IMG/VR virus record: IMGVR_UViG_2802429222_000003
DNA from: a virus
Taxonomy: Duplodnaviria > Heunggongvirae > Uroviricota > Caudoviricetes
Length of the DNA: 49,914 nucleotides
Direction: 5' to 3' (one strand)
This document shows, piece after piece, positions 34,788 through 45,063 of this stretch. Within the stretch, counting starts at the first letter, position 1, and every line of letters starts with the position of its first letter. A program made the position numbers and the translations under genes. The notes beneath the pieces were generated by a model, which saw only the letters and a list, made by a program, of their open reading frames with translations, searched no databases and had not been told where the DNA came from.

Positions 34788-35001
34788 GCTTCACCTCCGC
34801 AGAGGTCAAACGCTAGATGCAAAGAATTGCAGGTGCATTTCTGCATCTGTGAAGGGAGAAGAGAGTTTGGATTGTATGTGCGCATAAACGTCCCCGTTTA
34901 GCGCAGAAGTCACCGGAGTTGTTCAGGCTCCGGTGACATAATTATGCCGTGTTGATTTCCCAAAATCAAAATCGATAGAATTGCTCCTTCTTAAAACACT
35001 T

Positions 35002-35799
35002 TTACTCTCTGGAAGCTTTTCTTATCTCTCTTGGTGTTATATTAAAACGATTATGAAATCTTTCAGTAAAACGAGAAGGACACTTATAACCATTTTCTCT
35101 GGCAATCTCGCTTATAGGTTTTACCGTCGTTTGTATAGCAGACAACGCATTATTTAACCTCACATCGTCCAGTATACTTTGGAAACTTACCCCCTCGCTT
35201 GCTAGACGGCGATGTAATGTAGAAACAGAAATGTAGAGATATCGAGCAACCTTGTTTGCTGTCCATTTTGTGCCGGGTTCGGATAGCAGCAGGTTATAAC
35301 AACGACTTATCAATGATTGTTTACTATATGATAAAAGTAAATGATTAACATGATTCACTCCTAACGAAAGTAGAACGCCCATTGCTAAGTGCTCCTGAAT
35401 TTTAGTTGAGAAGCCTCGGGAAACAGATGTTTTTAGTTGCTCCCAACAATATATTAACTCAGGATTCTGAGGTAAAAAGAAACTTGTTTTGTTACGTATT
35501 TGATCAGTTACCGTATAAAGTTTTTGGAAACTCTCAATTAAATCAATGGGTAAGTAAAGCATTTCTGCAAGATAAAGCCCTGCTTCAGGATAATTCTCAA
35601 TATAAAATTCATAACCACAAGGAAATAATATTATTTGATTATTATCAACAGTTAAAGTATGCGTCTCCCAATTGATAACTTTCTTTCCCTGACGGATACG
35701 ACACAAAGCTGGCATAAGAGGCTTAACCCTATGAATCTCATGATGTTTATGCATCCGTATTTCTTCGATCTTTAAGTTAGTCTTACCTCTTGCCAGCAT
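35002..35799 (-). CDS. AraC-family regulator, YbcM-like (265 aa)
   Basis: C-terminal AraC HTH; AT-rich cargo block. Confidence 0.8.
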
Positions 35800-35808
35800 A
35801 CTCTCACC

Positions 35809-36360
35809 CTACTTTATCTCATAAACTGGTGTTATCTCAGCGGTTGCGATTTTATTAGCATTAAGCATATAACCAACTAACGCTCCGCTGGAGTTAGAAT
35901 CTACAGGAATCTTTTCAGTTTTTAGAGCCCATACTTTAAACTGGTAATGATGTGGTTTATCTCCTTTAGGAGGACATGCGCCACCAAACCCAGCATAGCC
36001 AAAATCATTTCGGCCTTGAACAGCACCAGTCGGCAGTTTTGTTCCATCACGTCTCCCTGCATCAACGGGCAAATATGTTATTGTTGCTGGAATATTAACA
36101 ACAGTCCAATGCCACCAACCACTGCCTGTAGGTGCATCTGGATCATATACAGTTACGGCAAAGCTTTTGGTACCTTCAGGAACACCAGACCAGGTTAATG
36201 AGGGCGATGTATTACCACCTTCACACCCAAATCCAGAAAAGACATGAGACGTTGTAAGTTGCTCTCCTGTTTTTATTTCATTACTAGTGACCTGAAATGC
36301 TGCAGCCTGCGCAGAAAATGTTATGAATGCCAATACAGTTGAAACGATAAGTGTTTTCAT
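35809..36360 (-). CDS. PEBP-family periplasmic protein, YbcL-like (183 aa)
   Basis: signal peptide; PEBP signatures DPDAP and HHY. Confidence 0.85.
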   Translation of the reverse strand: MKTLIVSTVLAFITFSAQAAAFQVTSNEIKTGEQLTTSHVFSGFGCEGGNTSPSLTWSGVPEGTKSFAVTVYDPDAPTGSGWWHWTVVNIPATITYLPVDAGRRDGTKLPTGAVQGRNDFGYAGFGGACPPKGDKPHHYQFKVWALKTEKIPVDSNSSGALVGYMLNANKIATAEITPVYEIK

Positions 36361-36577
36361 AAAAACCTCTTTGTTATGACCTATCGTTATTTTATTTGAT
36401 ATTCCTTTATCTCATTATGCATAAAGGCGCAATGTTTATGCAAAAGCAATCACAATTGTACCCCCAACCCAATTATTTGCCACAATATACACAAAGCACA
36501 TTGATACTATCTAAAAACTCTGCTTTATTATTAGTAATACCTACGAAAGTCGGTGTTATTTTTTAACCTACCATTCA

Positions 36578-36625
36578 AAATACGTGACATACACCATTTT
36601 GCTCATAATAATTTGTCACGTATTT
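36578..36625. repeat. perfect 12-bp inverted repeat AAATACGTGACA / TGTCACGTATTT with 24-bp spacer
   Basis: read directly at 36578..36589 and 36614..36625, between the recombinase and PEBP genes. Confidence 0.85.
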
Positions 36626-36824
36626 TCAGTATTTGAATCTGCGACCAAGAGTTCTCACCTAACAAATGATTAAGATTGTATAGCTCATTTACTACCCCAA
36701 TACAGCCGTACAAAACTCGCTTGTGGGAGCAAACAAAGTAATTACCCATTAAGTTTCGTCAAAGATAATTAATTCTGTCTTGCACTTTATCACCATAGCA
36801 TAACTTAAAATCCGAGATCATTAT

Positions 36825-38351
36825 TTAGAAATAAATCTCACCATCAACCATATATTTGAGAGCACTTATCGCCTGCTGGGCGGATATTACTTTCATTAAA
36901 GGATAGTGTTTAAAAACAATGCCATTCATAAAATAGATATCACAGGTTTTATTATCCGTATTAATTATGATTTTTTCGAATGTTTTATAGGCAAGTGTAC
37001 GGCATAACTCTCGTCCATTTTTACTGGTTAAGTCAATAGCATAAAAATCACTGAATGAATTTACACCTTTACTCTTCAAAGTTTTCAATGATACCGAAGC
37101 CCTTCGTAATTCCTTATCTAATAGTCTTATTTTCTCTGCTATAGCGGTAACTTCAGGCGCGACAGACAATGCAACGATTAAATTATTAATTTTCATCTGA
37201 AGCTCAATAATTTTTAACTCTAAAGTTTCATTAGCATCTTTCTTGTTTTCAACTGGTTGAATTTTGCTACAATTAAAAAGCAATTCATTAATGATATTAT
37301 AATCAACCAAATCTCTTTTTATTGATGGCCTGTCACATCGATGTAATCTTCTCATCGGACAAACATAATAGCCATGCAAACTTCCAGATACCGCATGAAC
37401 AATCATGGTATTACCACAAGCCTCACACTTCATAACTGTTCGAAGTAGATTTATTAGCATAGGATTCTTGCTACTATTGCTAATACCAAAAGGTGCCAAC
37501 CGAATTTCCTGTACAGCGTAAAACAAATCATCTGATATGACTCTGGGATAATAGCCAGCGATTTCACTTATCCCTTTCCCTCTTGCACGATATGAAGGTA
37601 CGCATATACCTATCAGAGCTTTATTCGCTAATAATTTTTCAATTACAGAAGGTCCCCATGCACTTTCTTTTCCTGAGAAATTCTTTACAGCATGATCATT
37701 TAAATACTTGGCTATTGCATTCAATGAGCGCCTTTCCATCCTGAGTTTAAAAATTAGCTCAATAGTTTTCACCCTGTCGGGGTCTGGAACAAAAGCCGTT
37801 CTTTTGTCATCTAAGGAGAGCCATCTCGGACAAGACGCCGTCATAATCGTACCTGATTCCAGTGCATCCTGCCGTTTTTTCTTCCATGATAATTTAACCC
37901 GACTTGACTTTATCTCGCTTTCTTCATTTGCCCTTTGTGCTATAAGTATGGCTTTTATTAATGAATATGGCTCATTCAAAGAGTCAATATTATAGACTGT
38001 ATTGTCGCAAAGAGTTATAACATCAATACCGTGATTCAAAATCAATTTCAGACGTTCAATCGCTTCACCGACTTTTTCTCTTGAAAGTCTGTCCAGACTT
38101 TCAACTAACAATGTAGTTCCTGGCAATATATAACCATGCTCTATAGCATCTAAAAATTCCGAAAAAGCTCCTGATTGTGCATGCTTTCCTTTGAATGCAC
38201 TTAATCCTAAATCTTCATATGTTATGGTATCAAGATAATAATCACTATTTACCTTTAACCATTCAGCAATAAGTCTTCTCTGTCGGTTTAATGAGTCACC
38301 AGACATCTGACCTGGTGATGAAAATCGCATATATGCTATGGCTTTTTTCAT
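36825..38351 (-). CDS. large serine recombinase, YbcK-like (508 aa)
   Basis: N-terminal resolvase-type domain (YMRFSSPGQ), C-terminal Cys cluster CEACGN...YYVCPMRRLHRC. Confidence 0.8.
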   Translation of the reverse strand: MKKAIAYMRFSSPGQMSGDSLNRQRRLIAEWLKVNSDYYLDTITYEDLGLSAFKGKHAQSGAFSEFLDAIEHGYILPGTTLLVESLDRLSREKVGEAIERLKLILNHGIDVITLCDNTVYNIDSLNEPYSLIKAILIAQRANEESEIKSSRVKLSWKKKRQDALESGTIMTASCPRWLSLDDKRTAFVPDPDRVKTIELIFKLRMERRSLNAIAKYLNDHAVKNFSGKESAWGPSVIEKLLANKALIGICVPSYRARGKGISEIAGYYPRVISDDLFYAVQEIRLAPFGISNSSKNPMLINLLRTVMKCEACGNTMIVHAVSGSLHGYYVCPMRRLHRCDRPSIKRDLVDYNIINELLFNCSKIQPVENKKDANETLELKIIELQMKINNLIVALSVAPEVTAIAEKIRLLDKELRRASVSLKTLKSKGVNSFSDFYAIDLTSKNGRELCRTLAYKTFEKIIINTDNKTCDIYFMNGIVFKHYPLMKVISAQQAISALKYMVDGEIYF

Positions 38352-38605
38352 GGTGACACCTGCTAACGTATGCTTTTATAAACCTTAGTGGTGGGATATA
38401 ATTTTTGTTTAATTTTTATTTAAAAAGACAATTAAGGTCACATTATCTTGAATATACAACAATAATCGTATTGCAATTTTCTTACGCCATAATCTTGAAA
38501 GCACAAAAGAATACATAAAAAATAAAGACATTAACAAAAAGCATAAAACGAGGCTCATATAAATATAAGAGCCTCCATATTTTAGTCGTTTAGAAACAAA
38601 TTATT

Positions 38606-38938
38606 TTAATGTGGTGTGCTTCGTGACAATAAATTAATAACCAACACACCGGCACAAATCAACATCATGCCTATAATGGCTGGCAGGTCCAGCCGTTGGC
38701 CGAAAAGTCCCCATGACAGTAAGCTAATCAGGACAATACCGACTCCTGACCAGATAGCATAAGCAATCCCTGTAGGAATATAAGCCAGCGTCTGAGCTAA
38801 TAACCAGAATGATGCACAATAACAAATAATTGTACCAACAGATGGCCATAACCGTGTAAAACCTTCTGAAAACTTCATTAAGGTTGTACCAATGACCTCT
38901 GCAAGTATTGCACCACCAAGATAAATATAAGGGTTCAT
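38606..38938 (-). CDS. emrE: small multidrug resistance efflux transporter EmrE (110 aa)
   Basis: from the internal Met the product MNPYIYLGGAILAEVIGTTLMKFSEGF... matches recalled EmrE; track ORF has an 18-codon extension. Confidence 0.9.
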   Translation of the reverse strand: MNPYIYLGGAILAEVIGTTLMKFSEGFTRLWPSVGTIICYCASFWLLAQTLAYIPTGIAYAIWSGVGIVLISLLSWGLFGQRLDLPAIIGMMLICAGVLVINLLSRSTPH

Positions 38939-39005
38939 AGCATATTCTTTCCTGTTCAAACTGGAGAGAATTGTACTACAGTTTGAACTCAACTCACCTG
39001 TTTCA

Positions 39006-39308: not shown

Positions 39309-40006
39309 ACACTTGCTCCTTTCAGCCCAAACTTAGCTTTGATTTCTGCGATCTTCGCCAGAGCCTGTGCACGATTTAGAGGTCTACCGCCCATGACAGG
39401 AAGTTGTTTTACTGGTTCAGGTATCGCCTCATCACGGTTAATTCGCGCTGTCATACAGGCCAGTTCATCGGCAGCCTTGCGCCGTAATTCCGCATCAGTC
39501 AGCGCATTGGCCCGCATGTTCTGATACAGGTTGGTAACCAGCCAGTAGTGCGCGTTTGATTTCCACGGATAAGACTCTGCATCCGGATACAGGCCACGTT
39601 TCCGGCAATACTCGTAAACCATATCAACCAGCTCGCTGGCGTTTGGCAGCCCGGCGGTAACGGATGCTTCTTCCCGGCACCAGGCAACAAACTGCCCGGG
39701 TGATGGCAGGAATGGTCGATTCTGCCGACGGGCTACGCGCATTCCTGCGTTAACCTGTTCCATCGTGGTGATCCCGTTTTCCCGGAAAGCCAGAACCCAC
39801 TGGCGGCGGATTTCGTTCAGTTCGTTCTGGTCCCGGTTAGCCAGGCTCGCCGGGAAAGTTGCCAGTAACTGGCTGAACACACCGTTGATGATCTGCGCTA
39901 CCTGTTGTACCTGCGGCTTTTCGTCGTACTGTTCCGGCATGTTGTTGGCGATCCGGCGCATCTGCTCACGGTCAAAGTTAACCATCTGTGCGGCGATGTT
40001 TTTCAT
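39305..40006 (-). CDS. P: replication protein P (233 aa)
   Basis: near-identical to recalled lambda P. Confidence 0.93.
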   Translation of the reverse strand: MKNIAAQMVNFDREQMRRIANNMPEQYDEKPQVQQVAQIINGVFSQLLATFPASLANRDQNELNEIRRQWVLAFRENGITTMEQVNAGMRVARRQNRPFLPSPGQFVAWCREEASVTAGLPNASELVDMVYEYCRKRGLYPDAESYPWKSNAHYWLVTNLYQNMRANALTDAELRRKAADELACMTARINRDEAIPEPVKQLPVMGGRPLNRAQALAKIAEIKAKFGLKGASV

Positions 40007-41022
40007 AAATCCACCCCGTAAATCCAGTCAGTGTTTGTCAGGTCGAGTTTTGATTTTCCGGCTGTCACGCCAGCCTGTTGCTTGTTACGGTTGATTTCGA
40101 GTTGGGTCCACTTGTCGCGGAGTTTGGCCGGACTTAGCACGTTACCGGACCAGAAGTTGTCCTGGCATGCCCAGCGGAACAGCACGCACATGTCGCGGTG
40201 GTTACGGCCGTCACGTTCACGCATCAGACGGATATCGTTAGCCCACCCTGCAAAATTCGGTTTTCTGGCTGATGGCGCGATGGTCTTCACCATGTCAAAC
40301 ATCCACTCTGCGGCGGTCAGGTCTTCTGCTGTCCCCCACTTGCTGCCGCTCTGAATCGCAGCATCCGCTTTCACCACAGGAAGGTCGTTTTCTGGCAGGT
40401 CAGAGGATTCGCCAGAATTCTCGGACGAATAAGGTTTTATATTGTCTTTTGTTAGTTTGTCTTTTGTGTTTACCTGATTCGGGTAAGTGCCTTTACCTGA
40501 TTTGGGTAAACTTTTCTTACCTGATTCAGGTAAATTTACCTCTTTCAGGTAAACTTTATTTTTCTTACCTGATTCGGGTAATGTTGACCATTCACTGACC
40601 ACATTATTAATGCCTATATTCCGCCCGCTCTGAATAAAAATCCCACGCTTTACCAGAGCACTTTTTGCAGCAGAACACTTGTGCGGCAATATCCCGGTTA
40701 ATTCGGAAAGTTGCTCGTTGCTAACCCAATCCAGTTTTTTATTAAAGCCATATGTTTTGCGCATGACAGCCAGAAAGACCAGAAGCTGGTGCTGTGTTAA
40801 TCCGGCCAGCATCACAGCTTCCAGCAACTCATTTGCAATGCGCGTATAACCATCATCGAGATCTGCCACGCGCGGCTCCTTTTGTGCCGCATCCGGCACT
40901 GGAAAATTGAATATCTCAGCAGTGTTTGCCATAATTCCTCCCGCAATGAGTGTGTTACGATTTGCACCTGAAAGTCGGTTCTGTTCCAGCAGACCGGCTT
41001 TCGCCATTTCTGAACCTGTCAT
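40003..41022 (-). CDS. O: replication initiator O (lambda-like C-terminal domain, non-lambda N-terminal domain)
   Basis: C-terminal ~150 aa match recalled lambda O; N-terminus differs; ATGA overlap with upstream gene; alternative start at Met31 (40932). Confidence 0.85.
   Translation of the reverse strand: MTGSEMAKAGLLEQNRLSGANRNTLIAGGIMANTAEIFNFPVPDAAQKEPRVADLDDGYTRIANELLEAVMLAGLTQHQLLVFLAVMRKTYGFNKKLDWVSNEQLSELTGILPHKCSAAKSALVKRGIFIQSGRNIGINNVVSEWSTLPESGKKNKVYLKEVNLPESGKKSLPKSGKGTYPNQVNTKDKLTKDNIKPYSSENSGESSDLPENDLPVVKADAAIQSGSKWGTAEDLTAAEWMFDMVKTIAPSARKPNFAGWANDIRLMRERDGRNHRDMCVLFRWACQDNFWSGNVLSPAKLRDKWTQLEINRNKQQAGVTAGKSKLDLTNTDWIYGVDL
40470..40581. repeat. replication origin iterons: five 17-bp TTACCTNNTTCNGGTAA repeats inside O
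   Basis: units at 40470..40486, 40493..40509, 40517..40533, 40536..40552, 40565..40581; AT-rich tract on the O-downstream side. Confidence 0.8.
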
Positions 41023-41564
41023 ATCGCCCCCAGCATGGTAGTAACCATCGCCATCAATGGACCAGCCAGATCTGGGTCCACACGAAACATCGACACAATA
41101 CCTTCACTAATTTCCTTCAGTTTCTGGTGGCGTGGTGCGTTGAGAATGACAGCCTGTTTTGCCTCACTGAGTTCCTTTTCCATTTCAGCCAACCTAACCA
41201 TGAAGCTATCCTGCTCAACCAGGTAACCGCGATATTCCAGCGGTAGTACCGCCAGAATTGCCGGGGTCAGTTCACGCACGTTATTTCGGTATTTTTCAGA
41301 ATCGAATTTGTTATCGAGGAAGCGGAACAGCTTCTGGCGTGCACGGCTGACATCATCAGGGAAATCGATGGTGCCGCCGCCCTGCTCCCGATACTCATTC
41401 ACAATGAGTGTGGCAACGACATCCTGATTATCTACAGCCGACCAGGCGCGGACGGCATCACGGATTTTTTCGTGGCCTGGCACCTGTTTTGTTTGAGAAC
41501 GATTTATCACCGCAGTCGGGCTAAATCCGCTAGTCTGTTGGTATGTAAGTGGTTGCATAGTCAT
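41019..41564 (-). CDS. hypothetical protein at the cII position (181 aa)
   Basis: lies between cro-like gene and O, coupled to O by ATGA overlap; not lambda CII-like. Confidence 0.5.
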   Translation of the reverse strand: MTMQPLTYQQTSGFSPTAVINRSQTKQVPGHEKIRDAVRAWSAVDNQDVVATLIVNEYREQGGGTIDFPDDVSRARQKLFRFLDNKFDSEKYRNNVRELTPAILAVLPLEYRGYLVEQDSFMVRLAEMEKELSEAKQAVILNAPRHQKLKEISEGIVSMFRVDPDLAGPLMAMVTTMLGAI

Positions 41565-41588
41565 TGCCTTATCAGTTCACGCCGCAGA

Positions 41589-41822
41589 TTAGGCGGCAGA
41601 ATTACTCGCGTTAAACAATGGTGCGAGGTCGGGACGAATATCTGCTGGTTTAATCTTTCCACCAGTGGCTGAGACAATTTTCATTACATAGCGGGCATCA
41701 ATTCCGCCACCGTGTAGCCAACGCCAAACAGTGGGTTGGGCTACACCGCATAGATCTGCCAGTCGTTTTTGACTACCTGTAATACTGATTGCGAGTTGAA
41801 TGGTTTTATTTGTCATTATCAA
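41589..41822 (-). CDS. Cro-like HTH regulator (77 aa)
   Basis: HTH pattern QKRLADLCGVAQPTVWRW; divergent from the repressor gene. Confidence 0.7.
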   Translation of the reverse strand: MIMTNKTIQLAISITGSQKRLADLCGVAQPTVWRWLHGGGIDARYVMKIVSATGGKIKPADIRPDLAPLFNASNSAA

Positions 41823-41927
41823 TTCCTATTGGTATTGAAATGAATGAATAATAGCAATGCGTATTAACCAAAATCAATAGCAAAACGTGTTTTGACCATC
41901 AATACGCAAGCGTATAAATTAAAACTT
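41823..41927. promoter_or_regulatory. immunity-region operator/promoter: dyads ATAGCAATGCGTAT (41851..41864), CAAAACGTGTTTTG (41881..41894), ATACGCAAGCGTAT (41902..41915); candidate divergent promoters
   Basis: plus strand TTGACC (41891..41896) and TATAAA (41912..41917) before the cI ATG; minus strand TTGATT-18-TATTAT toward cro. Confidence 0.55.
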
Positions 41928-42620
41928 ATGAAAAAAGAAACTCTTGCTGATCGCTTAAACCTAGCGATGGAACAATCTGGAATGTCTCAAGGCGCTCTTG
42001 CAAAGGCGTCTGGCGTAGCTCAACCCACTATCTGGAGACTGACAAGCGGCAACGCGCGCGGCTCAACAAAAATTGTTGAAATAGCTAATGCATTGGGTGT
42101 TCGAACAGAGTGGCTTTCATCAGGCATAGGCCCGATGAGAAATGACGGTCAACAATCAGGAAAGCCTGCTGTCAACCACTCCAAATACTTCAAGATTGAC
42201 GTTCTTGATATAGAAGTCAGTGCCGGGCCGGGAGTCATCAACCGTGAGTTTGTAGAAGTTCTACGCTCGGTTGAGTACTCGTTTGACGATGCTCGTCACA
42301 TGTTCGATGGTAGGAAGGCAGAAAATATCCGCATCATTAACGTACGCGGTGACAGCATGTCAGGAACGATTGAACCTGGTGATCTTCTATTCGTTGATAT
42401 CACGGTTAAATCTTTCGACGGTGATGGTATCTATGCGTTTCTGTACGACGACACAGCCCATGTAAAGCGCCTGCAAATGATGAAGGATAAGCTGCTGGTT
42501 ATCTCTGATAACAAAAGCTACTCACCGTGGGACCCGATCGAGAAAGATGAGATGAACCGGGTATTCATATTCGGTAAGGTTATTGGGAGCATGCCGCAGA
42601 CATACAGAAAGCATGGATGA
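41928..42620 (+). CDS. cI: CI-type prophage repressor (HTH + S24 LexA-like peptidase domain, 230 aa)
   Basis: N-terminal HTH (QGALAKASGVAQPTIWRL), C-terminal GDSM and KR motifs; ATG 41928 preferred over TTG 41892. Confidence 0.85.
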   Translation: MKKETLADRLNLAMEQSGMSQGALAKASGVAQPTIWRLTSGNARGSTKIVEIANALGVRTEWLSSGIGPMRNDGQQSGKPAVNHSKYFKIDVLDIEVSAGPGVINREFVEVLRSVEYSFDDARHMFDGRKAENIRIINVRGDSMSGTIEPGDLLFVDITVKSFDGDGIYAFLYDDTAHVKRLQMMKDKLLVISDNKSYSPWDPIEKDEMNRVFIFGKVIGSMPQTYRKHG

Positions 42621-42740: not shown

Positions 42741-43505
42741 GTGATTAGAGTAGGAAGACTGCTTCCTGGCGGAATTGTTATTGAAGAAGGACACCATCGC
42801 CCAATTAAAGGTGCTGCAATTCTTCAGTCTGAGTCTGGAGATGTAGAAGAAGTCATTGTTTTTGCGAAGCAACTTTCAAACAGAGGTATCGCCACCGAAA
42901 TTACTTGTGCTGCACTTGGTAGGTTGCTCTCTCTTCCGATTCCAGAACCAGTATTACTATTTGATAATAACAACCAACCTTTTTTTGGGAGTATTGATAC
43001 CGCTTACCCCAGCTTTACGCAGTTCATCAGCAATTCATCTGATTCTGGAGTTCTTAAGGCACTGGAATCATGGCCTCTATTGCAAAAAGCAGCCTATTTT
43101 GATGAATGGATTGCAATGGATGATCGTCATAATGGAAATTTACTATTTAATGGTGACGACTTTATTCTGATTGATCACGAAACTGCAATCCCTCCTGGAT
43201 TATCTCCAGACCAAACTGGTATAGATTACTATTCAAATCAACTGCTTCAACTTGCAAATGACTTAATAGATCGCAACAATGAAATTGCTATCCAAATGGC
43301 AGCAAATGATGCTCGAGCATGGGCATCATCTTGTAAACAAGATTCTATCGAAAAATTAGATGAAGAGATTTATGCCAGTGTTCACACTAAACCCAAGAAC
43401 CAGATGTTATCATTCCTTTCTGCTAGAATAGAGGTACTTGGTGACATACTATATGAGCAGATAAAACCGAAACAGACACAGATAAATTACAATGCTAAAC
43501 CTTGA
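42741..43505 (+). CDS. protein-kinase-like protein (254 aa), candidate exclusion/abortive-infection kinase
   Basis: GTG start with GAGG ribosome-binding site; motifs VFAK, FDEWIAMDDRHNGNLLF and DDFILIDHE with 18-residue Asp-to-Asp spacing; AT-rich. Confidence 0.6.
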   Translation: MIRVGRLLPGGIVIEEGHHRPIKGAAILQSESGDVEEVIVFAKQLSNRGIATEITCAALGRLLSLPIPEPVLLFDNNNQPFFGSIDTAYPSFTQFISNSSDSGVLKALESWPLLQKAAYFDEWIAMDDRHNGNLLFNGDDFILIDHETAIPPGLSPDQTGIDYYSNQLLQLANDLIDRNNEIAIQMAANDARAWASSCKQDSIEKLDEEIYASVHTKPKNQMLSFLSARIEVLGDILYEQIKPKQTQINYNAKP

Positions 43506-44373
43506 TCAACTCTTGAAATCAGCACCAGCGATGCCAACCTCAACAGGTAGCTGGGCGTCTGTATATCTTGAGCCAATGGTAGGTTCGGGTGAAAGACTGA
43601 CTGTCATAGTCGCTGTGGTAACGTCCAACGGAGATGTTCTCGTAAAGCCAGCAATAAGGAAAGAAGTTATCGAAGCCATGTACGGATTCAGAGCGTCTTC
43701 TTTCAATCGCATGATTGAGGTTATTTCAAACAGCCTTCAATATCACCTTGAAAATAATAAAAATTTTTCCGGATGGGTTCCTCCTATCTCAGGCATTACA
43801 TTGAGCACTCCTCGACAAGCCGTGTCTGCTAGTGTTACAGGTATATTGCGACAGGCGGTTGCTCTATCATCTAGCTTATCCTCGCTTCTAGAAATTGAAA
43901 ATAATCATGTAAAAAAACGCTCTAGTAATTCGAGGGAAAAAGATCGATGGTCAACGCAACTACTCGATGCTGTCATAAATAAAGATAACAGAAGAAATAT
44001 ATTCTTCAATCGACAATTTAGTTTTAGCGATGGGCATCGACCTGCAAAGATATTTTATCTGAGCGACCATGCGGCCATCAACACTGGAAAATTACTTCCG
44101 CATAACTTAACCGAACAAGTAAAAGATGGAAAGGCAAAAATCTCTGATTTATCAATGATAAAAAAACATGGCGATATATTCCCTCGCGATACTCATAAAC
44201 TTATAATCTATAAACCTGAGGATGATAACCCTGCTTATACTGATAAAAACATTGCATCCATTAAGAGTGCTTTCTTAGCACTTCAAGATCTTGCTTATAC
44301 TTACGATATATCTATTACAGCTGTAAACTCTGTAGAACAAGCTGCAAGTATTATTTTAAACACAGCAGCCTAA
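43492..44373 (+). CDS. hypothetical partner protein of the kinase-like gene (293 aa)
   Basis: overlaps upstream gene by 14 nt; followed by a strong terminator; no recognisable domain. Confidence 0.55.
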   Translation: MLNLDQLLKSAPAMPTSTGSWASVYLEPMVGSGERLTVIVAVVTSNGDVLVKPAIRKEVIEAMYGFRASSFNRMIEVISNSLQYHLENNKNFSGWVPPISGITLSTPRQAVSASVTGILRQAVALSSSLSSLLEIENNHVKKRSSNSREKDRWSTQLLDAVINKDNRRNIFFNRQFSFSDGHRPAKIFYLSDHAAINTGKLLPHNLTEQVKDGKAKISDLSMIKKHGDIFPRDTHKLIIYKPEDDNPAYTDKNIASIKSAFLALQDLAYTYDISITAVNSVEQAASIILNTAA

Positions 44374-44579: not shown

Positions 44580-44685
44580 TACCATATCGCAACAACACAA
44601 CGATACGGCAACCACCTGATTCACTGTTGCGATGACCGCTTAGATCCGCAGCTTGAATTTCAGCAGGCTCCGGGGAGTGCGAGGG

Positions 44686-45063
44686 GTGAAGCGGACGCGT
44701 GAACGTCGGTGTGACCAGCTGAAATCAACTCAACACTTTATACCTCAGTCGCTTCAACGAGGCGGCTTAGTTATGACAACCGGCGGCCATCCACCGCCTG
44801 AATACGCGCAGAAGTCTCTATATGTTCAGCAGCCCAGCTTACGGGCAGGAGTTTTTATGGTTCATCAACATTACGGAACGCAGACCGTTAATCGCGGTGC
44901 GGTCATGCCAGGCATGCTGGTCAAACACAAAGATGGTACCTGGACTGCATCAGCTAATTTACGCGGACGGCTTTATCTGCATCGCGGCATCGAGCGCACT
45001 TATACCCGTGATTTGCTCGTGGAAGTTTTTCTCGACGGACGCGGTAACGGCCTCAATCACTAA
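44686..45063 (+). CDS. first pL-operon ORF with arginine-rich N-terminus (candidate N-like antiterminator); alternative start ATG 44770
   Basis: GTG 44686 with GGGGAG 8 nt upstream; N-terminus (M)KRTRERR; ATG 44770 has a GAGG site. Confidence 0.4.

Follow-up and report, generated by a model that had tools for sequence, protein, structure and literature searches.

A long YdaT-family protein of the phi80 CII type in the cII position of a phage genome

Which regulator occupies the cII position of this phage genome, and does it take part in the decision between lysis and lysogeny? The question arises from a sequence-only reading of the window, that is, the whole 49,914-nt stretch of Caudoviricetes DNA analysed here (IMG/VR record IMGVR_UViG_2802429222_000003), which had noticed an ORF between a cro-like gene and O, about twice the size of lambda CII and not similar to it. 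These observations hold: the ORF is real, lies on the minus strand and encodes 181 aa in its longest, ATG-initiated form (41019..41564), compared to the 97 aa of lambda CII. The protein has no match to the lambda CII family (Phage_CII, PF05269) at E<=0.01, and BLASTP against lambda CII gave E=0.38. Translation is likely to start at the second ATG (Met3 at 41558), giving 179 aa, because an AAGG motif is found 8 nt upstream of this codon and merely 2 nt before the first ATG. In addition, Met3 is the start used in PGAP and RefSeq phage records, and the homologues are mostly 179–180 aa long. The gene order is cI / cro-like / cII-like / M3-like RNA / O / P / ren, in which the O-like gene is followed by lambda-P-like and Ren-like genes, and the cro-like ORF spans 41589..41822. 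The features at the immunity end are as follows:

41019..41558, minus strand: cII-like gene (phi80-type CII, YdaT family), 179 aa from Met3, based on PF06254, PHROG 163 and identity to phi80 CII
41570..41567: Shine-Dalgarno motif AAGG of the cII-like gene, the basis for the Met3 start
41589..41816, minus strand: cro-like gene (YdaS family HTH; PF15943, E=1e-14; PGAP start at 41816)
41928..42620, plus strand: CI-like repressor (HTH and S24 peptidase), presumed target gene of a pRE-like transcript

The gene itself is an ordinary, already named phi80-type CII of the YdaT family. A profile and structure search, as the sequence-only reading had proposed, placed the protein in the YdaT/phi80-CII family by PF06254, PHROG 163 and Foldseek matches to 3c4r and 8bt1. 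The Pfam YdaT_toxin model (PF06254) matches with 103.6 bits (cut-off 21, E=7.9e-30), and PHROG 163, the 'CII-like transcriptional activator' family, matches residues 19-181 with E=6e-67, while no NCBIfam model was found for the protein. In tblastn comparisons it is 66% identical over its full length to phi80 cII, the gene bearing this name in the X13065 and NC_021190 annotations, and it reaches 95-99% identity with the annotated cII genes of 16 coliphages. The gene is present in 2214 of the 5426 complete E. coli genomes (~41%). The cII gene of phi80 was defined by clear-plaque mutants.

The AF2 model (pLDDT 73) contains five helices and a long helix (30-43, 45-58, then, after an 11-residue loop, 70-82, 88-104 and 107-110, followed by 119-138), that is, the POU-like five-helix HTH domain with a long alpha2-alpha3 loop and a subsequent long helix that is typical of YdaT. 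Foldseek ranks 3c4r and 8bt1, both YdaT structures, highest among the PDB entries (probability 1.0, target TM ~0.6, 26% identity, but E of only 0.02-0.1). Furthermore, the recognition-helix motif RxRQKLFRFLDN is unchanged across 32 homologues, its QKLFRF segment aligns to QKIFRW of CP-933P YdaT and QNIYHRW of Rac YdaT, and the recognition-helix Arg of these proteins (Arg60 in CP-933P, R57 in Rac) corresponds to R79, which is invariant in the 32 homologues. By homology, the protein may form a tetramer in which the C-terminal helices pack into an antiparallel four-helix bundle, as the predicted helix 119-138 lies at the equivalent place. The genomic slot is also that of YdaT, between YdaS/Cro-like and replication genes and opposite the repressor gene.

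According to PMC8630535, PMC9986795 and PMC11879457, the YdaT proteins of CP-933P and Rac bind a TTGATT-N6-AATCAA box and form tetramers by their long C-terminal helix. They also activate a reverse, pRE-like promoter and thereby increase expression of the repressor. The idea of a functional analogue of CII that does not resemble lambda CII therefore stands, but for the YdaT/phi80-CII family this is established knowledge rather than an open question; an unrelated early regulator, or one without a known role, is not supported.

The names 'YdaT_toxin' in Pfam and 'toxin YdaT domain-containing protein' in PGAP invite the view that the protein is the toxin of a YdaS/YdaT toxin-antitoxin pair, and over-expressed Rac YdaT is toxic according to PMC11879457. 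This is extremely improbable, since CP-933P YdaT is non-toxic and the pair is not a toxin-antitoxin system (PMC8630535, PMC5917428), the protein has an HTH DNA-binding fold, and the gene occupies the cII slot of lambdoid phages, next to an oop-like RNA. RefSeq still uses the name 'toxin YdaT domain-containing protein', which misleads toxin-antitoxin and defence screens.

Taken together, the protein is likely a phi80-type CII, a long member of the YdaT family that acts as a lysogeny-promoting transcription factor, and the operator steps proposed below belong to this best overall explanation. By homology, it would be a tetrameric helix-turn-helix factor that is expressed early, from pR and immediately following the Cro-like protein, and that pushes the infected cell towards lysogeny. 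Its presumed operator and promoter lie within its own gene:

41493..41510, no strand assigned: YdaT-box-like inverted repeat GTGATAAATCGTTCTCAA (minus strand), predicted high-affinity operator, cII codons 17-22
41531..41536, plus strand: predicted -10 TAGTCT of a pRE-like promoter, antisense to cII and cro and directed towards cI, based on conservation

In a strict search, TTGATT-N6-AATCAA had no match at the cro-cII junction, and this internal box, an inverted repeat of the TTGATT-N6-AATCAA type near the gene start as in other YdaT loci, emerged only when 45 homologous loci were compared. It is imperfect (8/12 matches, 4/6 symmetric pairs), and the -10 TAGTCT is weak. Conservation extends to synonymous sites among 41 non-redundant homologues: TGAT(A/T)...TCA of the box is kept; Ile18 is the rare codon ATA in 40/41, compared to 0/41 for Ile32; codon 21 has T as its third base in 98% while its amino acid varies; and third-position entropy across the box is the gene-wide minimum (0.51 vs a mean of 1.27). 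The box is followed by exactly 20 nt and the conserved antisense -10 (41531-41536), of which T-12, A-11 and T-7 are 100% conserved in the 41 genes, even where the amino acid varies. The same arrangement of box, 20 nt and -10 is found in Rac (TATGAT), in a CP-933P-type phage (TATGAT) and in a Klebsiella phage (TAGCAT). The conservation of codons 17-22 could partly reflect protein function. Moreover, the window contains one instance of box + 20 nt + TAnnnT, close to the number expected by chance, so that the weight of this pattern comes only from its conservation.

The geometry suggests class II activation, with the box centred at about -41.5 and a predicted start near 41543. In this model, the antisense promoter has its -10 TAGTCT in codons 8-10, the protein would bind 41493-41510 with the site centred at -41.5, and the resulting pRE-like transcript would run antisense through the cII ribosome-binding site and cro into cI. 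Activation of this promoter is predicted from the conserved antisense -10 at fixed spacing. In the homologous systems, Rac PracR4 has been placed ~190 bp from the box and the CP-933P box 'downstream of PRE933P', which differs from the geometry proposed here, yet both are predicted rather than mapped promoters. Two other elements near the cII start were rejected. A lambda-like TTGC-N7-TTGC across it (41553-41567, plus strand) is considered a chance match because it is not conserved in phi80, HK639 and mEp237, and a hairpin at the cro stop codon (41581-41597) was discarded as a nutR boxB, being unlike the annotated nutL core of phi80.

With a single box + 20 nt + TAnnnT in the window, and none found in box searches near int and inside Q, equivalents of pI and paQ appear to be missing; a search for short dyads or direct repeats common to the expected pRE, pI and paQ regions gave nothing useful either. 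This lack of pI-/paQ-like boxes in the window would suit an early regulator with another main task, for example on replication genes or on host operons, and no real part in the lysis-lysogeny decision, as would the tight attachment of the gene to the replication module and the M3 RNA, and the binding of Rac YdaT to the host rcsA promoter, described in PMC11879457. Such a protein is, however, highly improbable here, given that the phi80 counterpart is the gene named cII and that homologues raise repressor expression.

Further boxes, which may extend the reach of the phi80-type CII beyond its own gene, are found upstream of the nin region and at the cro start:

34952..34969, no strand assigned: perfect YdaT box TTGATTTCCCAAAATCAA, predicted second operator, 6.5 kb downstream of cII
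34946..34941: -10 CATAAT of the rightward nin-region promoter
34880..34937, minus strand: two conserved hairpins just downstream of the nin promoter (34909-34937 and 34880-34904), possibly a terminator or leader RNA
41805..41822, no strand assigned: site resembling the box, TTGATAATGACAAATAAA on the minus strand, whose spacer contains the cro ATG; candidate low-affinity operator at the start of cro translation

The nin box overlaps the -35 and the spacer of the rightward nin-region promoter. In 4A7, phi80, HK639, CobraSix and three sampled E. coli prophages (three spread-sampled genomes were inspected, and all three were positive), a perfect palindrome whose spacer varies is located 5 nt upstream of CATAAT. 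All 21 complete phage records with the nin-box module carry a phi80-type cII, while mEp237 has the same cII type without a nin box, and the module is found in 2825 genomes, compared to 2214 for cII, partly as DLP12-type remnants without an immunity region. The link between nin box and cII could reflect physical linkage in related phages rather than function. The hairpin stems downstream of the promoter show compensatory changes among phages, and Rfam gave no match for them. TTGATT-18-TAGAAT, a possible leftward promoter of the window that would share the nin box, was rejected because it is not conserved in phi80 or HK639. The near-box at cro matches in 11/12 positions here and in 12/12 in an E. 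coli Z887 prophage that has the same cro allele, and in Rac the YdaT footprint spans -60 to +40 around the ydaS ATG (PMC11879457).

It is conceivable that the protein mainly acts as a repressor or roadblock. Bound at the cro start, in the 5' part of its own coding sequence and at the nin promoter, it would reduce Cro, its own production and Q expression, and no pRE-like transcript would arise. The nin box covers a good promoter from -35 to -18, a placement suited to a repressor, the cro ATG falls within the near-box, the footprint of Rac YdaT covers PydaST and the ydaS RBS (PMC11879457), and YdaT is termed a 'repressor' in PMC9986795. We consider pure repression unlikely, as homologues activate the reverse promoter up to 29-fold in a box-dependent manner, and an antisense -10 at a fixed box spacing in four lineages is hard to explain by repression alone. 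In the preferred explanation of a lysogeny-promoting activator, the protein would also sit on the perfect box over the -35 of the promoter upstream of ninB...Q (34952-34969) and on the near-box at the cro start codon, and at the nin and cro sites either lytic and late expression would be damped, or the sites would be bridged by the second pair of DNA-binding domains. The disordered N-terminal extension of 27 residues, which Rac and CP-933P YdaT do not have, would largely be a read-through of promoter and operator DNA.

From these features a broader, tentative proposal can be drawn, which we hold with rather less than even confidence. YdaT and phi80-type CII proteins may be class II activators whose operator (-41.5) and -10, at a fixed 20-nt spacing, lie beside or inside their own 5' end; the phi80-type frame may have grown over this control DNA, giving the disordered tail; and a second perfect operator may lie upstream of ninB-Q, 5-8 kb away, in a large coliphage group. 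If this is true, the logic of lambda paQ would be replaced by direct repression or by DNA looping via the spare pair of DNA-binding domains, and the promoter assignments of Rac (PracR4, 190 bp away) and CP-933P would need re-mapping.

The sequence-only reading had also held that the cII-like gene is translationally coupled to O. The ATGA overlap with the longest O ORF does exist (TCAT at 41019-41022, plus strand), but the coupling is not supported, as O has its conserved start 87 nt further downstream and the gap carries the gene of an oop/M3-like antisense RNA whose terminator covaries:

40003..40932, minus strand: O-like replication initiator from the conserved start, Met31 of the long ORF, 309 aa
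40942..41010, plus strand: homologue of oop / phi80 'M3 RNA', antisense, ends approximate, based on alignment to phi80 and HK639 M3 RNA
40907-40935: promoter of the M3-like RNA, TTGAAT-17-(TG)CATAAT, its -10 overlapping the O start codon
40970-41002: terminator hairpin of the M3-like RNA, based on covariation

The ATG within ATGA is formed by the terminal Ile codon and stop of cII (ATA TGA). Most likely, O starts 87 nt downstream of cII, at the ATG 40932..40930, which is immediately preceded by GGGAGGA (Shine-Dalgarno GGAGG), and the alignments with lambda O, phi80 gene 15 and PHROG 277 all begin at this Met31 of the long ORF. Among 37 related loci, a Shine-Dalgarno motif and ATG at about +85 to +92 (up to +109) form the O start in 35, a stop codon lies within the cII-O gap in 21, and merely 4 have an in-frame overlap of the ATGA type; where the upstream frame is closed, PGAP places the O start 89 nt after cII. 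As the O start is conserved downstream, the coupling is probably an artefact of taking the longest O ORF.

The M3-like RNA can be aligned to its annotated counterparts (M3 RNA) in phi80 and HK639. Its terminator has 13 pairs, 9 of them with compensatory changes in 24 sequences, and a folding energy of -24.1 kcal/mol (z=-2.5) was obtained; the terminator scan missed it because its U-run is interrupted. The window has no Rfam match at gathering thresholds, and at E<=1 the M3-like and nin regions gave none except a chance miRNA match. Many records probably include 30 codons too many in O and thereby hide the gene of the oop/M3-like RNA.

The cII-like gene is routine: ~41% of the complete E. coli genomes carry it, and phage records already label it cII. 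Phi80-type CII is the commonest non-lambda CII type in E. coli prophages, including relatives of Stx phages. The spacing of box, 20 nt and -10 and the second operator near nin offer testable sites for lysogeny control.

Lambda CII (PF05269) occupies the same genome slot with an oop-type antisense RNA behind the gene, and carries the repressor-establishment operator and promoter inside the 5' end of its own gene, as is predicted here. It is a tetrameric HTH activator, whereas for the cII-like protein the tetramer has been shown only in homologues. It is also shorter (97 aa), without detectable sequence similarity, and binds a direct repeat, TTGC-N6-TTGC, flanking the -35, whereas the YdaT family binds an inverted repeat, with a predicted centre at -41.5 here. 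Lambda pI and paQ have no equivalents found in the window.

The YdaT proteins of CP-933P (PDB 8bt1, 3c4r) and Rac (E. coli K-12 b1358) share the Pfam family, the HTH fold, the long helix and the recognition-helix Arg with the cII-like protein. The slot between cro-like and replication genes is also common to them, as are the type of box close to the start of the gene and, on the antisense strand, the 20 nt between box and -10. However, they are merely ~26-33% identical, have 140-141 aa, and have no counterpart of the 24-residue N-terminal extension or of the ~38 C-terminal residues, which are predicted to form two helices. The box spacer contains their start codon, whereas the box is located at codons 17-22 here, and CP-933P reportedly has only one strong site, compared to the second perfect site near nin in the present phage group.

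The closest known system is phi80 (NC_021190 / X13065), whose CII is 66% identical over the full 179-180 aa and likewise has an N-terminal extension and two extra C-terminal helices. Its gene order is the same, with the cro-like gene 30, a 30-nt gap, cII, an M3/oop-like RNA and the O-like gene 15, although its immunity genes (cI/cro) differ from those here and, unlike in phi80, the reading frame downstream of cII in the window by chance has no stop before O. The alleles also differ in the box (GTGATA...TCTCAA) and in the repeats of codons 2-7 (ACCA rather than ATCA). Nevertheless, phi80 cII also contains an internal box (ATGATAAACCGCGCTCAA), and a perfect box lies upstream of ybcN/ninB.

The window holds a lambdoid prophage (DLP12/phage 82/4A7-like) in reverse orientation, with the following genes around the reported ORF:

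41892..42620, plus strand: CI-like HTH-S24 repressor
41589..41822, minus strand: YdaS/Cro-like HTH gene
41019..41564, minus strand: reported ORF (cII), 181 aa
minus strand, like the cro-like gene and cII: lambda-O-like, lambda-P-like and ren genes

The ORF is real and lies between the cro-like gene and O, as the sequence-only reading had it. The cII protein is most likely 179 aa long: the second ATG (41558) has an AAGG (41570..41567) at a distance of 8 nt, which stands just 2 nt from the first ATG, and homologues, RefSeq phage records and PGAP use the second one as start.

By every feature testable in the analysis, the gene belongs to the YdaT/phi80-CII family. A profile search matched the ORF to Pfam PF06254 (YdaT_toxin; 103.6 bits, cut-off 21), and it also matches PHROG 163 'CII-like transcriptional activator' (6e-67), while NCBIfam has no matching model. 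A set of 16 coliphages, among them 4A7 (Bievrevirus), the PhiR series, D2 and Perceval, carries genes with 95-99.8% DNA identity to it that are annotated as cII or 'CII-like transcriptional activator'. In tblastn, the window protein shares 66% identity with phi80 cII over the full length, 72% with the relative in Enterobacter phage CobraSix and 52% with those of HK639 and HK225. A protein search found 705 relatives across Enterobacteriaceae, almost all of 179-180 aa, and cII is present in 2214 of 5426 complete E. coli genomes; the PGAP name of these copies is 'toxin YdaT domain-containing protein'. Sequence similarity to the solved structures 8bt1 and 3c4r, labelled 'YdaT transcription regulator (CII functional analog)', is weak (E ~2e-3 to 5e-3), and the same two entries are the best Foldseek matches (probability 1.0, target TM ~0.6, 26% identity) of an AlphaFold2 model (32 homologues as input, pLDDT 73), which has a YdaT-like helix arrangement and disordered residues 1-27. 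All members of the subfamily share the recognition-helix motif SRARQKLFRFLDN unchanged, and QKIFRW is its aligned counterpart in CP-933P YdaT. The phi80 gene was defined by clear-plaque mutants, and phi80 records name it cII. Because public phage records already annotate the window gene as cII, this finding is already known; the earlier proposal of a functional analogue of CII was correct, though already established by published YdaT homologues and the phi80 name.

CP-933P YdaT is not a toxin and switches on a silent reverse promoter in the ydaS-ydaT interval (PMC8630535). In its crystal structure, a POU-like HTH domain is accompanied by a long helix forming a 222-symmetric tetramer, which is able to hold two DNA duplexes, and its footprint covers the inverted repeat TTGATT-N6-AATCAA, the YdaT box (PMC9986795). 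Rac YdaT binds a site (ATGATTCATGAAAATCAA) spanning its own start codon, footprints the racR-ydaS intergenic region and activates racR expression in a box-dependent manner (PMC11879457).

A comparable element lies inside the window gene:

41510..41493, cII codons 17-22: predicted operator, YdaT-box-like copy GTGATAAATCGTTCTCAA

Homologous loci were compared (45 loci from 46 genomes and 5 phages), and 41 non-redundant cII genes were aligned by codon. Across this alignment codons 17-22 carry nTGAT(A/T)-N6-nnTCA(A/G), which matches the published box, and third-position entropy reaches its whole-gene minimum there (0.51 against a mean of 1.27). The rare codon ATA encodes Ile18 in 40 of 41 genes and never Ile32, codon 21 keeps a third-base T in 98% while its amino acid varies (A/N/S/F), and the Gln22 codon is CAA in 73% of genes, against 95% CAG at Gln45. 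Exactly 20 nt beyond the box, the antisense strand carries TAnnnT (TAGTCT, 41531-41536 in the window), whose T-12, A-11 and T-7 are 100% conserved in the alignment, including one third and one first codon position with varying amino acids. With this spacing the box centre would lie at -41.5, where class II activators classically sit, and transcription is predicted to start near 41543. The transcript of this predicted pRE-like (reverse, establishment-type) promoter would cross the cII ribosome-binding site and cro in antisense orientation and head for cI. An identical spacing recurs in Rac (TTGATTTTCATGAATCAT, 20 nt, TATGAT), a CP-933P-type phage (TATGAT) and a Klebsiella phage (TAGCAT). The published Rac and CP-933P promoters were predicted, not mapped, and their reporter fragments would contain these -10 elements. 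A fixed class II geometry may be common to the whole YdaT family, possibly a new feature. Proteins of the phi80 type differ from the YdaT of Rac and CP-933P by an N-terminal extension of 24-27 residues that is predicted to be disordered. It spans exactly the predicted promoter and operator DNA, and may over-print this control DNA, which would possibly be new. Overlapping the predicted transcript start, a sense-strand direct repeat ACCA-N7-ACCA (41536-41555, plus; cII codons 2-7) is ATCA-N7-ATCA in most homologues, both copies being altered together in the window allele.

Downstream, the gap between cII and O contains two further elements:

40970-41002, plus strand: hairpin, -24.1 kcal/mol, z=-2.5
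40907-40935, plus strand: promoter-like TTGAAT-17-(TG)CATAAT; like that of lambda pO, its -10 overlaps the start codon of O

The letters of an ATGA overlap with the long O ORF are present (TCAT, 41019-41022), its ATG belonging to the last codon and stop codon of cII (ATA TGA). The lambda O, phi80 gene 15 and PHROG 277 alignments all begin at Met31 of that ORF (ATG 40932..40930), which has GGGAGGA just upstream. Among 37 related loci, an in-frame ATGA-type start occurs in only 4 and a stop codon in the gap in 21, while 35 have a Shine-Dalgarno sequence and ATG at about +85 to +92 (up to +109), regardless of the replication gene downstream; in a prophage with a closed upstream frame, PGAP begins O 89 nt after cII. 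We conclude from sequence comparison that O most likely starts at 40932 and that the overlap is incidental. The earlier observation is partly confirmed, in its ORF, slot and ATGA letters, and its interpretation is partly supported; the translational coupling to O is not supported, in view of the conserved start and the rarity of ATGA-type starts among relatives.

The 86 nt from the cII stop to ATG 40932 align with the phi80 'M3 RNA, homolog of lambda oop RNA' and with the HK639 'M3-like RNA'. In 24 diverse loci the hairpin has 13 pairs, of which 9 show compensatory changes, and a T-run comes after it. We conclude that cII makes up one module with the putative M3-like RNA; re-annotating this RNA and the start of O is possibly new. 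Public annotation, by PGAP and in several phage records, and RefSeq entries such as NZ_CP076264 begin the O-like gene (40003-41022, minus) at the cII-overlapping ATG, adding 30 codons that are antisense of the M3/oop-like RNA, and also name cII 'toxin YdaT domain-containing protein'.

Further boxes were found outside cII:

34952-34969, between ybcM and ylcH/ybcN (ninB-like): predicted second operator, perfect YdaT box (nin box)
34909-34937 and 34880-34904, minus strand: two hairpins directly after the nin promoter (34880-34946)
41822..41805: candidate operator, near-box TTGATAATGACAAATAAA, cro ATG in its spacer

The nin box is the single perfect TTGATT-N6-AATCAA in the window. It coincides in part with the -35 and spacer of a rightward promoter, TTGATT-17-CATAAT, which the phage 82 record X92588 already lists as putative. 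The arrangement is common to 4A7, phi80 (TTGATAAAACACTATCAA), HK639 and CobraSix, with unrelated DNA upstream, and its order is conserved: perfect palindrome with variable spacer, 5 nt, CATAAT and two hairpins with compensatory changes. A phi80-type cII accompanies this module in 21 of 21 complete phage records and in 3 of 3 spread-sampled E. coli prophages with different immunity and intervening genes; mEp237 has such a cII and lacks the module. A second operator at the nin promoter would possibly be new, and its position suggests a candidate role in repressing this nin/Q-proximal promoter or in looping by the tetramer. The hairpins, whose stems show compensatory changes among phi80, HK639, CobraSix and 4A7, have no Rfam match and could be a leader, terminator or small RNA upstream of ylcH/ybcN. 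One E. coli prophage that shares the cro allele has a perfect version of the near-box at the cro ATG; the site is reminiscent of the footprint that Rac YdaT leaves over the start of ydaS. No YdaT box was found near int/xis or inside Q in the window; TTTATTAGCCAAAATCAA (1438-1455, plus), at a large distance from the regulatory region, differs from the consensus by one mismatch.

Several other features were observed. Two genes directly 3' of cI (42741-44373, plus), in the rexAB position, encode a HipA_2-like kinase (PF20613, E=5e-7; weak PADLOC match PDC-M66A, E=2e-6) and an overlapping 293-aa protein without a Pfam family (phrog_21150), and may be a prophage-encoded defence or abortive-infection pair. 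DLP12-type cargo between ren and the nin region (35002-38992, minus) comprises emrE (SMR efflux pump), a 508-aa large serine recombinase (ybcK-like), a PEBP-family protein (ybcL-like) and an AraC-type regulator (ybcM-like), so that an apparently complete lambdoid phage carries a drug-efflux gene. The inverted repeat GCCGCAGATTAGGCGGC (41581-41597) across the cro stop codon is kept in phi80, HK639, CobraSix and several prophages with different cro genes, and does not resemble the nutL core annotated in phi80. Downstream of pL in the window, no N-like gene was observed, and the pL leader (44590-44790, plus) is weakly like an HK639 stretch that carries the annotation 'putL-like antiterminator RNA', a hint of antitermination by RNA (put-type). 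Repeats of type CTTACCTGATTCAGGTAAA within O (40480-40600), with LPESGKK repeated in the protein, are probably origin iterons.

Finally, the gene is outside the lambda CII family, with no PF05269 match and a BLASTP E of 0.38 to lambda CII. The two proteins are unrelated in sequence, but the window protein probably works in the slot of lambda CII and by the same logic, with an establishment promoter that is early and embedded in cis, plus an oop-type RNA.
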